Below, in pieces: positions 1,964 through 35,511 of a stretch of DNA of 37,079 nt. The stretch is taken from the IMG/VR virus record IMGVR_UViG_3300009960_000010, positions 1 to 37,079 of that record; one strand, written 5' to 3'. The stretch is from a virus. Positions within the stretch are counted from its first letter, which is position 1; the number at the start of each line of letters is the position of its first letter. The notes under the pieces were generated by a model. That model saw only the letters and a list, made by a program, of their open reading frames with translations. It searched no databases and was not told where the DNA came from. The position numbers were made by a program, and so were the translations under genes.

Positions 1964-1993
1964 TTGACAATTTAAGCACGATTGTGTTATACT
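1964..1993 (+). promoter_or_regulatory. Promoter P1 (TAAGCACG-spacer family)
   Basis: TTGACA (1964-1969), 18-nt spacer ATTTAAGCACGATTGTGT, TATACT (1988-1993). The TGT before the -10 gives an extended -10 (TGnTATACT). Upstream of recT. Confidence 0.7.
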
Positions 1994-5730: not shown

Positions 5731-5910
5731 ATGTTTATAGCAATTGTAATAACGACGATAGCCAGCGGATTGGGGTTAGTCTATCTTTACGCAGGGCTGG
5801 TCGGTGTCCTCACCACCGTCTTTGTTTTGGGACTAATCAGCATAGTCGCAGCAATCACCTATGGCTATTATTTGGAAAAGGACAAAGAAGATGGAGGTCG
5901 TAGACAGTAA
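5731..5910 (+). CDS. Small two-TM membrane protein (59 aa), not in the ORF track
   Basis: Hand translation: MFIAIVITTIASGLGLVYLYAGLVGVLTTVFVLGLISIVAAITYGYYLEKDKEDGGRRQ*. Strong AAGGAGGAAG 4 nt upstream. Confidence 0.6.
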   Translation: MFIAIVITTIASGLGLVYLYAGLVGVLTTVFVLGLISIVAAITYGYYLEKDKEDGGRRQ

Positions 5911-6127
5911 AAATCAGGAAAGAAAGCAAAGAGGCTGGAACTTTAAGAGAGGAGCTAAAAATGCAATCGATACTGAGACACTTCGTGAGAGAGGTAGAAA
6001 AGGGGGCAAAGCCTGTGGCAGAAAAACTGGCTTTCATGACCCGAGCGTACTTAAAAGAGCGGTTGAAAAGTCAATACAGACGCGCCGCGCAAAGATTGAG
6101 AAACGCAAGGATAGAGAGGTATCTTGA
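5891..6127 (+). CDS. Basic protein with a KGG/GsiB-like motif (mutually exclusive with 5961..6158)
   Basis: Frame of track ORF 5861..6127, internal ATG 5891. LRERGRKGGKACGRKTGF resembles the GRKGG stress-repeat motif and the 35266..35511 protein (GRLGGMASTTGGF). The RBS is weak. Confidence 0.4.
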   Translation: MEVVDSKNQERKQRGWNFKRGAKNAIDTETLRERGRKGGKACGRKTGFHDPSVLKRAVEKSIQTRRAKIEKRKDREVS

Positions 6128-6176: not shown

Positions 6177-6205
6177 TTGTAATTTAAGCACGATTAAGTT
6201 ATAAT
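6177..6205 (+). promoter_or_regulatory. Promoter P2 (TAAGCACG-spacer family)
   Basis: TTGTAA (6177-6182), 17-nt spacer TTTAAGCACGATTAAGT, TATAAT (6200-6205). The leader AATCACCAGAAAGG (6221-6234) is identical to the P1 leader at 2009-2022. Confidence 0.7.
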
Positions 6206-10349: not shown

Positions 10350-10378
10350 TTGACAACGTAAGCACGATGATATAAACT
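10350..10378 (+). promoter_or_regulatory. Promoter P3 (TAAGCACG-spacer family); candidate start of the modification + late transcription unit
   Basis: TTGACA (10350-10355), 17-nt spacer ACGTAAGCACGATGATA, TAAACT (10373-10378). The ATG at 10385 sits about where transcription would start. Confidence 0.55.
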
Positions 10379-10384
10379 AAGAAT

Positions 10385-10570
10385 ATGAAAACATCATTTA
10401 TATCAAGCCGACCTTGGGTCAGACAACAACAAATCAAACAAAGAAAAGCCCTACAACGTCGTGAGAGGCTGTGTAACAGTCTTTACATCGCAAAATGGGT
10501 ATCAACATGCTTTGCGCTGGTATTCGCTATGTGGGCGTCTGTGTGGCTTTTGTATTTTGCTATGAGCTAG
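10385..10570 (+). CDS. Small protein with basic N-terminus and C-terminal TM helix, possibly leaderless
   Basis: 61-aa ORF with no RBS. Its ATG is 7 nt after the P3 -10 hexamer. The C-terminus VSTCFALVFAMWASVWLLYFAM is hydrophobic. Confidence 0.4.
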   Translation: MKTSFISSRPWVRQQQIKQRKALQRRERLCNSLYIAKWVSTCFALVFAMWASVWLLYFAMS

Positions 10571-10882: not shown

Positions 10883-11663
10883 GGCTTTTGTAATCCCCAC
10901 AGTCCCCAACAGAATACAGGGGTTAAAGAGATTGTTAGAGTCTATCAAAGGCGAGGTAGATGATACGTGGGACATTCTCATAGCTGCTCAGTGCTACTCA
11001 GAGGCTGAGAGAGACGATATGACGCGTTTTATTGAAGAATTGGGGTTGGCGGACAGGACTGTCTTCAAAATCTCTGAGAAACTCTTAGGTTGCTTCGGAG
11101 GACGTAAACTGTGTTATCAATCAGACTATGATGTCTATTGCAACTTAGACGATGACATGATTGTTTTGCCTACCCAAGACTACAACATGATGGCTAAGAT
11201 GGTTTTGAAGTACGATTTTGTAGGTTGTGTTTCTGGGAATTGGGGTCGCACCTTTGAGCTAGCACAAAAAAAGATACCGAAAATGAAATCAGAGTTCATA
11301 AAGCAGAGCATAGTACACACGGCTGGGGGTATGGTTTTTGGCAAGCGTATCCGAGACATCATCATTGACCTGCCAGACAATATCGGCTATGAAGACTCTG
11401 AGATATCTGCTCAGGCTTACGTCAATGGCTATGAAAACTATCGATACCTAGGTTCTTTGATAGTTCACGCTGTCGTAACTAAGGGAGGGTTGAAAGATTG
11501 GAGACACAAACACGACGCGGTAGTGCCTCACCCTGAAATATTCAATTATAAGAGAGCCAAAAAAGACAAGTATGCAACTAAGGGAAACAACCATCACGAG
11601 CCTATAAGCTCTGACCTTACGCCTTTTGCAAGAGCCATGCACCTGAAAAATAAAAAGAGGTAA
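10872..11663 (+). CDS. GT-A fold (family-2-like) glycosyltransferase
   Basis: FVIPTVPNRIQGLKRLLESI at the N-terminus, GGRK..YCNLDDDMIV (DxD-type) and YEDSEIS, matching the GT2 layout. No TM segment. Confidence 0.7.
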   Translation: MATKAFVIPTVPNRIQGLKRLLESIKGEVDDTWDILIAAQCYSEAERDDMTRFIEELGLADRTVFKISEKLLGCFGGRKLCYQSDYDVYCNLDDDMIVLPTQDYNMMAKMVLKYDFVGCVSGNWGRTFELAQKKIPKMKSEFIKQSIVHTAGGMVFGKRIRDIIIDLPDNIGYEDSEISAQAYVNGYENYRYLGSLIVHAVVTKGGLKDWRHKHDAVVPHPEIFNYKRAKKDKYATKGNNHHEPISSDLTPFARAMHLKNKKR

Positions 11664-23835: not shown

Positions 23836-24231
23836 ATGGGACGTTTAGCACTTAATAAGAAAGTAGATATCAGCAAATTGATTGAAGGCTGGGACGGAGC
23901 TTACATCATCGTCTCACCAATGCTGACCAAAGACATGGCAGAGTTCGCCAACTCAAACCTTGACGAGGCAGACAAAGCTCAACTGTCCGCTCAAACGCTA
24001 GAGTGGGCAAAGAAGAAGTTCGTACGAGGGAAGGTCTATATCGAGACCGAAACCGGCAAGGAACTGGTAGACATGCAAGTGGAAGATATCGATGAGCTGC
24101 CATTCATAGTAGTTACCGAGATTTTCTCTGTTTTAGTAGGAAAAGACTTTGACCCAAAAGCTTCAGCGACGGCTCAGAACGGCGCACTAGAGCCAATGAG
24201 CGTCGCAGCTGGTACAGAAGCGCTATCCTAA
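23836..24231 (+). CDS. Tail assembly chaperone (gpG-like, zero-frame product)
   Basis: 131 aa, acidic, directly before the tape measure gene. GGAGGG RBS. Confidence 0.8.
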   Translation: MGRLALNKKVDISKLIEGWDGAYIIVSPMLTKDMAEFANSNLDEADKAQLSAQTLEWAKKKFVRGKVYIETETGKELVDMQVEDIDELPFIVVTEIFSVLVGKDFDPKASATAQNGALEPMSVAAGTEALS

Positions 24232-24422
24232 GAGGTGTTGAAATCCCCCCAGAGTTTGCTCAAGAAGTCCAGGGCGTAATCTATCGAGAACGCCTTGGAT
24301 TGTCATATCAGGAGTATTTACAAGAGCCGTACGAGGAAGTGGAGCGGGCTTTGTATATCTGGAAGCTGCAAGATGAGCGTGATAAACTAGAACAAAAGAG
24401 GGCTGAACAGAAACAGCGATAA
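23836..24422 (+). CDS. Tail assembly chaperone frameshift product (gpGT-like)
   Basis: The -1 frame after 24159 reads KSFSDGSERR...PEFAQEVQGVIYRERLGLSYQEYLQEPYEEVERALYIWKLQDERDKLEQKRAEQKQR* and ends 25 nt before the tape measure start. Confidence 0.7.
24153..24159 (+). other. -1 programmed frameshift slippery heptamer C_CCA_AAA
   Basis: XXXYYYZ heptamer in the correct phase of the G frame (codons GAC CCA AAA). The -1 frame has a TGA at 24150-24152 and is then open to TAA 24420-24422. Confidence 0.7.
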
Positions 24423-33125: not shown

Positions 33126-33157
33126 GAGACTCTTTTTCTGGTGAGAGTCTCTTTTTT
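33126..33157 (+). terminator. Intrinsic terminator at the end of the late/lysis operon
   Basis: GAGACTCT (33126-33133) pairs perfectly with AGAGTCTC (33144-33151). 10-nt loop, T6 at 33152-33157. Confidence 0.85.
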
Positions 33158-33222
33158 GTGCGAGTTTTCCACAACTCTAGCTGAGGTAGACAGAAAAATA
33201 TAGAAAAATAAGCATAAAACCA

Positions 33223-33251
33223 TTGACAACGTAAGCACGGTTATGTATACT
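33223..33251 (+). promoter_or_regulatory. Promoter P4 (early; TAAGCACG-spacer family)
   Basis: TTGACA (33223-33228), 17-nt spacer ACGTAAGCACGGTTATG, TATACT (33246-33251). A-rich upstream tract AGAAAAATATAGAAAAATA. Downstream block ATAACATAACCATT (33253-33266). Confidence 0.75.
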
Positions 33252-33309
33252 AATAACATAACCATTCGGTTACATATAAAACTTAAACTCATACGGAGGA
33301 TAAACGAAA

Positions 33310-33525
33310 ATGTTTGTAGAGAAATACGAAATCTATCACAATGAAAAGCTAATCAAAACTATCGGTTATGACGAGAAGAACCGCCTAGAATCTGTGTTAC
33401 TTGCTGGCGGTGAGACTATGACAATCGACGGTGTGGAATATAACGCGAGAGACCTTAAAATCAAAGACGTTGGTTATTTATATCATAGCAAAACACCTGA
33501 TGAGCTAAAAAAGGAGGATTACTAA
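33310..33525 (+). CDS. Early hypothetical protein
   Basis: 71-aa ORF, ACGGAGGA RBS, first gene after P4. Confidence 0.7.
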   Translation: MFVEKYEIYHNEKLIKTIGYDEKNRLESVLLAGGETMTIDGVEYNARDLKIKDVGYLYHSKTPDELKKEDY

Positions 33526-33534
33526 ATATTGGCA

Positions 33535-33564
33535 TTGACAACATAAGCATAATCAGATTATACT
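33535..33564 (+). promoter_or_regulatory. Promoter P5 (early; near-duplicate of P4)
   Basis: TTGACA (33535-33540), 18-nt spacer ACATAAGCATAATCAGAT, TATACT (33559-33564). The same ATAACATAACCATT block lies at 33566-33579. Confidence 0.7.
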
Positions 33565-33604
33565 TATAACATAACCATTTTAATACCTGAAAGGGGCAAA
33601 GGTA

Positions 33605-34871: not shown

Positions 34872-35264
34872 ATGACTGGTAATCTTAGAGGAATGTCTCC
34901 AGAGGAGATACTGGAACTTTTAACAGGCGGTGAGAACGCTATGAAAAAACAGATTCACACAGAGATTGATTCTATGAACTGCGTGCAATGTAGCGCTTTG
35001 GCTTGCCGTTTCATAGAGGAAATGGATAAGCTGCAGATTGGGGATTTTGGCAACACACGACCTGAAGCATACTTAGTCTTTGATAAAGAGAATGGCGAAG
35101 TGAACTCATACAAACCACCGAAAATCGACGGTTACGCGCTGTGTAAAGACTTCAATCTGTCTAAAAAACAACTGAGGACGGTTTTGGCTGTGGCGATGAT
35201 GGCTCAAGCAGCAGAGTTCGCAGTCGAGTTCAAAAAGATGGCTGCTGAAAAGGAGGGTGAATAA
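34872..35264 (+). CDS. Early hypothetical protein
   Basis: 130-aa ORF. The start is uncertain (ATG 34872, or the next in-frame ATG 21 nt downstream). Confidence 0.65.
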   Translation: MTGNLRGMSPEEILELLTGGENAMKKQIHTEIDSMNCVQCSALACRFIEEMDKLQIGDFGNTRPEAYLVFDKENGEVNSYKPPKIDGYALCKDFNLSKKQLRTVLAVAMMAQAAEFAVEFKKMAAEKEGE

Positions 35265-35265
35265 G

Positions 35266-35511
35266 ATGGCTGGCAACAAATCAGGCGGGCTGAAAGCCAA
35301 AGCTACTAACCTAGCGAAAAACCCAAACTTCTACCGTGATATCGGTCGGCTTGGAGGGATGGCTTCCACGACTGGCGGCTTTGCTTCCGAAGTAATCGGT
35401 GATGATGGCTTAACTGGACGACAGAGGGCTAAGATTGTTGGTAAAAAGGGCGGTTTTATCAGTAAAAGAGGTAAATCTAAGAAGAAAGAGGTTAAAAATG
35501 AAACCTACTAA
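35266..35511 (+). CDS. KGG/GsiB-repeat-like small basic protein
   Basis: Track ORF 35257..35511 trimmed to ATG 35266 after AAGGAGGG. NPNFYRDIGRLGGMAST and AKIVGKKGGFIS resemble the (D/N)xxFYxEIGxKGGEAT stress-protein repeat. Confidence 0.7.
   Translation: MAGNKSGGLKAKATNLAKNPNFYRDIGRLGGMASTTGGFASEVIGDDGLTGRQRAKIVGKKGGFISKRGKSKKKEVKNETY

Follow-up and report, generated by a model that had tools for sequence, protein, structure and literature searches.

The five promoters P1 to P5 of the phage genome studied here carry the same asymmetric block of sequence in the spacer between their -35 and -10 hexamers. Comparison with related genomes indicates that this block is held by purifying selection, and the reading to which we lean, with a little less than even confidence, is that it serves as an operator for a sequence-specific DNA-binding protein recognizing it in one orientation. 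The window, that is, the whole stretch of DNA analyzed, is 37,079 bp long and is the complete IMG/VR virus record IMGVR_UViG_3300009960_000010, with a 127-bp terminal repeat and all genes directed along the + strand. Recognizable genes encode a replication initiator, a RecT-like annealing protein, and a PD-(D/E)XK nuclease, and further genes specify a MoxR/CobS-like ATPase and a PAPS-reductase-like protein. The structural and packaging genes encode a large terminase, a portal-MuF fusion, a major capsid protein, and a tape measure protein, and the endolysin combines CW_7 and LysM domains; the phage is a siphovirus with a Gram-positive host. Megablast and a short-query blastn search with the P4 region found no cultured relative at the DNA level, and the nearest portal proteins were only ~25% identical to that of the window. 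Endolysin and capsid searches yielded only weak hints of the host, pointing to Butyrivibrio, Microbacterium, and Streptococcus phages.

All five promoter sequences and their TAAGCA(C/T)(G/A) block were found where a preliminary description of the window had placed them, each on the + strand in a gap ahead of a + strand gene block. P1 (1964-1993) consists of TTGACA, the 18-nt spacer ATTTAAGCACGATTGTGT, and TATACT, with the block TAAGCACG at 1973-1980, and it heads the recombination module, whose RecT-like gene starts at ATG 2030. P2 (6177-6205; TTGTAA, the 17-nt spacer TTTAAGCACGATTAAGT, TATAAT; block at 6185-6192) precedes a module with an AAA+ ATPase, and P3 (10350-10378; TTGACA, the 17-nt spacer ACGTAAGCACGATGATA, TAAACT; block at 10359-10366) precedes the modification, packaging, and structural genes. 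P4 (33223-33251; TTGACA, the 17-nt spacer ACGTAAGCACGGTTATG, TATACT; block at 33232-33239) lies just downstream of an intrinsic terminator on the + strand (33126-33151, a 9-bp stem with a T-run) that closes the late/lysis operon; being the first promoter past this terminator, it is presumed to be early. P5 (33535-33564; TTGACA, the 18-nt spacer ACATAAGCATAATCAGAT, TATACT) is a paralogue of P4, with the block TAAGCATA at 33544-33551, which reads TAAGCACA at the P5 of relatives. The hexamers match the sigma-70/sigma-A consensus at 10-11 of 12 positions, with spacers of 17-18 nt, and, together with a site at 185-213, P1 to P5 were the only intergenic + strand sites reaching at least 10/12 in a promoter scan. 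They were also the only near-consensus intergenic sigma-A/sigma-70 promoters carrying the block. Judged by their sequence and setting, P1 to P5 are genuine promoters of the sigma-A/sigma-70 type, and the phage belongs to a small family of uncultured siphoviruses with Bacillota-type hosts. The block starts 3 nt past the -35 hexamer in P1, P3, P4, and P5 and 2 nt past it in P2, ends 6-7 nt before the -10 hexamer in all five, and spans approximately -26/-27 to -19/-20 when the -10 hexamer is numbered -12 to -7.

Chance as the origin of the shared block is excluded. The pattern TAAGCAYR occurs 10 times in the window, against 4.65 ± 1.76 in shuffled sequences, and none of 100 shuffles reached 10, so the motif exceeds background in a genome-wide scan. 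The composite TTGACANNNTAAGCAYR, with at most one mismatch allowed, gave four forward matches, no reverse match, and none for a reversed-pattern control, and the analytic probability that four other promoters would match the P1 hexamer in register (±1) is ~3e-13. The conserved 8-mer of the preliminary description is real, but it is part of a longer unit, TTGACA-A-Y-N-TAAGCACG-N-T, and a logo built from 24 promoters of the family reads TTGACA-A-y-n-TAAGCACG-n-T. Two of its positions, the A next to the -35 hexamer and the T two bases past the block, are invariant in 24/24 of these promoters, and neither position had been used in choosing the sequences. The block was also said to mark every unit-initiating promoter; it does so for P1 to P5 but is lacking from a candidate sixth promoter at 185-213 on the + strand (TTTTCA, 17 nt, TATAAT), whose spacer has only GGAAGCAAT. 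The hexamers of this candidate are kept in the relatives G001, G003, and G004 while its spacer varies freely. It precedes wHTH/initiator genes, and only GGAAGC(A/G)AT is present there in the window and in G003.

The four remaining TAAGCAYR matches all lie in coding sequence, in line with the shuffle expectation of 4.65, and no promoter-less copies of the "stoperator" type were found in the window beyond chance. One intragenic copy, ACGTAAGCACG (2039-2049, + strand, inside the recT-like gene), was considered as an auxiliary operator and set aside as a chance match; it is not kept in the orthologous genes of G001, G003, and G004. Neither dyad nor reverse-complement symmetry is present in TTGACAAYNTAAGCACGNT, and every promoter copy, like the extra copy near P4 described below, is oriented along the + strand.

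Relatives of the window allowed the constraint on the block to be measured. Four close relatives from one metagenome (G001 to G004, with the window as G000) have large terminases 81-94% identical, and a metagenome scan added the close members ODIS01000164, OEBY01000355, ERZ773066.184, and ODIG01001329. In the P1 orthologues of G001, G003, and G004, ATTTAAGCACG is retained and the distal spacer varies; P2 orthologues are found in G003 and G004 (the latter with TAAGTACG), and P3 orthologues with the block in G002, G003, and G004. P4 is identical or near-identical in G001 to G004 and in the metagenome contigs. When the orthologous promoter regions of G000 to G004 were aligned and variable sites counted, the block varied at 2/40 sites (5%), next to 1/30 (3%) in the -35 hexamer, 1/14 (7%) in the gap between the -35 hexamer and the block, and 2/30 (7%) in the -10 hexamer. 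Variability was 11/33 (33%) in the distal spacer, 192/350 (55%) upstream, and 91/353 (26%) downstream, and the difference between block and distal spacer was significant (Fisher p = 0.002). The more distant relative G010 shares 15 proteins with the window (TerL 62%, portal 46%, and capsid 58% identity) and has four promoters of the form TTGAC(A/G)-AYA-TAA(G/A)CACG-(G/T)T, among them the equivalent of P2. A second distant relative, L240 (ATPase 52% identity), has TTGACAAGCTAAGCAC, and the promoter flanks of both G010 and L240 are unalignable with those of the window. The functional constraint supposed at the outset is thus borne out, with conservation at the level of the hexamers in orthologues and survival of the block in otherwise unalignable intergenic DNA. 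Given this low variability and this retention, the block is under purifying selection and is more than a trace of shared ancestry or duplication.

The constancy of the block bears directly on the possibility that nothing reads it. Under that explanation, the promoters would be paralogous cassette copies kept alike by duplication or gene conversion (concerted evolution), and the block would be leftover ancestry. Duplication and conversion do occur among the family promoters: the P1/P2 and P4/P5 pairs have extra flanking blocks in common, and P5 is absent altogether from G001/OEBY-type genomes. In ODIS01000164 (L269, ODIS01000164.1, 7939-7967 and 8378-8406), moreover, the P5 core from the -35 hexamer through ATAACATAACCATT is identical to the P4 core, apparently by direct gene conversion between paralogous promoters. 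The relative G218 (IMGVR_UViG_3300045988_125650; 20 proteins shared, terminase 57% identical, 35% GC) offers a similar picture, with four ~100-bp promoter cassettes at 10930, 14270, 16479, and 21587 and its own conserved spacer, TTTaTyrtGTAAAAt (GTGTAAAA spacer). In each cassette, phased A-tract repeats (GTnTAAAAAA) lie upstream, the -10 hexamer is a perfect TATAAT, and the leader and ribosome-binding site are common to all four. Phages related only through the ATPase module also show promoter families of their own; conservation of the spacer inside one genome is thus common, and the conserved sequence differs by lineage. Yet the block is as invariant as the hexamers in orthologues while neighboring spacer bases vary 6-fold more, G010 and L240 keep it though all surroundings have diverged, and the 2-3 nt between the -35 hexamer and the block differ among paralogues where the block does not. 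We therefore regard a block without any reader as improbable.

Additional elements surround P3, P4, and P5. An extra direct copy of the block, TAAGCATA, lies at 33209-33216 on the + strand, 23 bp upstream of the P4 spacer copy (approximately -49 to -42); it is flanked by A-tracts and invariant in G001 to G004. Just past the -10 hexamer, P4 and P5 have a second, class-specific element, ATAACATAACCATT (33253-33266 and 33566-33579, respectively, + strand), and a perfect inverted repeat brackets the -10 hexamer of P4 (GGTTATGT at 33239-33246 and ACATAACC at 33256-33263). Together these look like a second, early-promoter-specific operator or a leader element. ATTC-GGTTACAT follows the P4 inverted repeat (33239-33275), and ACATAAC is also found past the -10 hexamer of the P4-equivalent promoter in G010. 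The content of the P4 operon differs among genomes (window 33310-33525; G003 23961-24284): an extra protein of ~105 aa (MTTTKKITKRDIDNIREF...) is encoded directly after P4 in G001 to G004 and is absent from the window, and the 71-aa gene of the window's P4 operon is absent from G004. At P3, ATG 10385 lies only 7 nt past the -10 hexamer with no ribosome-binding site (10373-10387), so the P3 mRNA is probably leaderless. The 6-nt gap and the ATG of this first gene are kept in G002, G003, and G004, and its 61-aa product is conserved at 56% identity.

Copies outside the spacer are not limited to P4. In G010, a copy TAAGCATAA lies 36 bp upstream of one spacer copy, a different spacer copy has an extra one 31 bp downstream of it, and L240 has TAAGCAC directly past the -10 hexamer (at +1). 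Second direct copies thus accompany 3-4 of ~10 independent promoters (p ~0.002-0.02), an enrichment that becomes no more than suggestive when related contigs are merged. In a set of 73 distinct, unrelated promoters matching the pattern, a second direct TAAGCA was present within ~75 nt in 9 and an inverted copy in 6, against 2 for control hexamers and ~2.6-4.3 direct copies expected; some of these contigs are interrelated, and this excess of direct copies is likewise only suggestive. More telling arrangements were found in L241 and L263, two unrelated temperate-type elements in which three direct TAAGCACA copies surround one promoter. The distance from the upstream to the spacer copy is 23 bp, as at P4, and the A-rich flanks match P4 in the form AAAAATAAGCAYAAAA-N3-TTGACAA-N2-TAAGCAC. 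The L263 promoter lies between an opposite-strand HTH_3 repressor gene and a gene for a 79-aa Cro-like HTH protein; on the shorter L241 contig only the Cro-like gene, downstream, is visible. Switch promoters with three direct TAAGCACA sites were located at 1540-1760 of L263, at 1-110 of L241, and in L312. The HTH_3 repressor gene of L263 is fused to an integrase C-terminal piece, and its 79-aa Cro gene is DUF739/HTH_26-like; the protein had no relatives in IMG/VR. Three copies also lie beside a reading frame of G006 that is HTH-like by eye, and L048 has palindromic versions of the heptamer. The heptamer thus appears to serve as an operator-type site in other phages, and its use in phage switch regions, together with the extra copies outside the spacer, favors an asymmetric operator bound by a DNA-binding protein over recognition by RNA polymerase alone. 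For the second reader invoked by the preliminary description, these observations favor a DNA-binding protein.

The likeness between the P4 region and the L241/L263 promoters could also be read historically. Mycobacteriophage D29 reportedly retains repressor sites. By analogy with D29, which one account considers to have probably arisen by deletion from a temperate parent (PMC5712189), the blocks could be relic operators of a temperate ancestor that lost its repressor, mattering only when a related prophage supplies one (cross-immunity). In architecture, the P4 region is almost the same as the temperate-type switch promoter of L241/L263, and neither a repressor nor an integrase was found in the window. 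Relics should, however, decay, whereas strong constraint on the block is seen in no fewer than eight close genomes and in two deep lineages, and sensitivity to the repressor of another phage should be selected against. We consider this explanation very unlikely.

A stronger competitor, though still one we judge to be on the unlikely side, holds that RNA polymerase itself reads the block, as a lineage-specific -35 extension or spacer element contacted by the neighbors of sigma-A region 4, the beta' zipper, or the zinc-binding domain, or through DNA shape, such that all phage promoters would be made strong. The block is indeed present on every promoter class in a near-fixed register (3 nt from the -35 hexamer in 21/24), about one turn away and on the same face, and it partly overlaps the Z-element region contacted by the beta' zipper (-24 to -18; PMC3173786). 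The lack of a recognizable regulator gene fits this explanation, as does the need for the early promoters P4 and P5 to fire with host polymerase alone. Against it, the Z-element is described as a loose motif with ~2-fold effects, reaching ~6-fold when the -35 hexamer is also lost, which could scarcely keep 8-9 bases invariant; in place of AACCT or AACAT, the promoters here have ACG(A/G/T)T as the pentamer at the Z position. The relative G218, moreover, has a wholly different spacer, and copies at -49, at -62, just past the -10 hexamer, and in the leader make no sense for a spacer element.

Scans of host-type genomes weigh against recognition by polymerase as well. The raw count of database matches is uninformative, with 24 IMG/VR stretches for the real pattern and 35 for a reversed-block control, and among the non-family IMG/VR matches only G010 is related to the window. 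Species-representative genomes gave 30 pattern matches, ~22 of them in Clostridia MAGs at one or two per genome and scattered, with only two sitting ahead of tRNA genes. No enrichment was seen in 200 Clostridia genomes, where TTGACANNNTAAGCAC matched 13 times against ~14 expected from genome size (reversed control, 5), so the block was rejected as a general promoter element of Clostridia. In the one Clostridia genome with three matches, all lay in coding DNA with no -10 hexamer. A narrower, host-specific preference for the block is conceivable.

The search for a protein reader within the phage yielded no candidate. In agreement with the preliminary description, Pfam or PHROGs scans of ~40 reading frames on both strands revealed no recognizable regulator gene: no HTH, RHH, sigma, anti-sigma, or integrase match was obtained, including among the minus-strand frames at the promoters. 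Sequence searches against the PDB gave no lead to the reader, the predicted structures of two early proteins had pLDDT values of 51 and 75, the better model without a significant fold match, and the HTH proteins of L263, L241, and G006 had no homologue in the family of the window. The only non-structural proteins common to the window and G010 are a 137-aa protein, a nuclease, an ATPase pair, and two basic KGG-like proteins, and most of these are also present in genomes without the block. The latter two are small, very basic proteins (88 and 84 aa; KGG-like motifs RGWNFKRG and RERGRKGG) encoded at 5861-6127 and 35257-35511 of the window, neither of which matched a family. The 88-aa protein also occurs in G218, its gene keeping a constant place just upstream of the P2-equivalent promoter, and the 84-aa protein also occurs in G005. 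The early region of G010 encodes YodL-like, ERF, and HTH_36 initiator proteins and no repressor; its first early gene, YodL-like (L098 2588-2926; Pfam E = 7e-13), points to a Bacillota host and a function in cell-shape takeover.

No early regulator or early ORFan is common to the window and G010, and no cognate protein was found, which leaves unsupported the earlier proposal of an ORFan as the reader. Named candidates fared no better. The replication initiator was rejected because its iterons (CCAACAAAATGTCTGAATCAGAAA) are unrelated to the block, and the ParB-domain proteins because G003 and G004 have the block and lack the cassette encoding these proteins. Resemblances to sigma-54, sporulation-sigma, CIRCE, cre, 0A-box, and MotA-box sequences were rejected by eye, and the block showed no match by eye to the consensus sequences of the 0A box, cre, CIRCE, CtsR, LexA, and TnrA. 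A conserved phage-encoded reader is thus unlikely. With none detectable, the reader may come from the host or a resident prophage, an origin that fits better.

Under the operator reading, the asymmetric cis-element TAAGCAC(G)-N-T, at approximately -26 to -17 and selectively maintained in each promoter, would lie about one helical turn downstream of the -35 hexamer (~9.5 bp separate the center of the block from that of the -35 hexamer), which puts the two on roughly the same face of the DNA. Binding of a protein at this position would place it in competition with RNA polymerase for the -35/spacer face and make it clash with sigma region 4 or the beta' zinc-binding/zipper region, leading to repression. 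As all transcription units carry the site, the whole phage genome would be silenced or released together, with no ordering of early and late expression. Starting from the motif, its conservation, and its extra copies, which were observed, we infer that a protein binds, that it represses, and what kind of protein it might be. Several points run counter to this reading: no regulator protein was found, the site lacks dyad symmetry, promoter-less copies do not exceed chance, and one site on early, middle, and late promoters alike provides no temporal logic. By analogy, we can further imagine a regulator-less phage family in which every unit is wired to one asymmetric site that a protein of the host or of a prophage recognizes in trans. 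Such a genome-wide dormancy or cross-immunity switch, resembling that of phi29 and Spo0A, would rely on an undescribed protein-site pair that switches of temperate phages from these habitats also use; this elaboration is speculative and on balance unlikely. Should a protein prove to be the reader, transcription throughout a phage family without a recognizable regulator would be under the control of a single factor. This would point either to a DNA-binding protein that is new or to a seemingly virulent phage being controlled by its host or by a prophage. Should the reader be RNA polymerase, the block would be a spacer element of unusual sequence specificity. In both cases, the 19-bp consensus offers a practical means of annotating the promoters and transcription units of this uncultured group.

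Known systems resemble the window in part. T4 middle promoters lack a -35 hexamer and have a phage-specific MotA box near -30/-25, centered at -30, with the core TGCTTtA. The reverse complement of the block, TGCTTA, resembles this core, but the -35 hexamer is intact or near consensus in all five promoters of the window and the box orientation is opposite, so the resemblance was set aside as a coincidence. No MotA- or AsiA-like protein was found in the window, whose early ORFs have no family matches. The Z-element, read by the beta' zipper of the RNA polymerase core and tested with Thermus, E. coli, and B. subtilis enzymes, occupies -22 to -18, 4 bp upstream of the -10 hexamer, with a loose consensus (AACCT, AACAT) and mostly ~2-fold effects (PMC3173786). 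Like the block, it lies in the -35/-10 spacer and contributes to promoter use; the block differs in its position (-26/-27 to -19/-20, 6-7 nt before the -10 hexamer), in being nearly invariant, in its occurrence outside spacers, and in sequence, with ACG(A/G/T)T as the pentamer at spacer positions 9-13.

In phi29, the Spo0A sites reportedly lie in the main promoters of the phage. The DNA of phi29, a phage classed as lytic, contains host Spo0A sites through which its lytic cycle is suppressed (PMC2731898), and the window would likewise be a lytic-classed phage without a repressor of its own carrying sites for a protein that is encoded elsewhere and able to switch off the entire lytic program. 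The analogy is one of logic only; the block does not match the 0A box (TGTCGAA). The repressors of Cluster A mycobacteriophages recognize 13-14-bp sites that are asymmetric, point in the direction of transcription, and in some cases lie inside promoters (PMC6550527, PMC9283540). The operators and stoperators of this system (L5 gp71-type monomeric repressor) share with the block a short asymmetric site without a dyad, oriented with transcription and in part located in promoters, as well as repetition over the genome, through which one protein could silence every unit. They number 20-30, however, most of them outside promoters, whereas the window has 5-6 sites and no promoter-less intergenic copies beyond chance. 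The window also differs in having no repressor, integrase, or partition genes that we could find, in its Gram-positive host of the Bacillota type, and in the unrelated sequence of its site. Site number and the missing cognate repressor thus set it apart from the Cluster A class, and no match to a known consensus ties it to the phi29/Spo0A class. The CI/Cro-type operators of L241 and L263 differ in placing three sites at one promoter beside HTH_3 repressor and Cro-like genes, where each of the five promoters of the window has a single site, or two in the case of P4, and the window has neither a dyad nor such genes. What they share with it is the heptamer TAAGCAC itself, in the same spacer register relative to the -35 hexamer and with a second copy 23 bp upstream in P4-like A-rich flanks.
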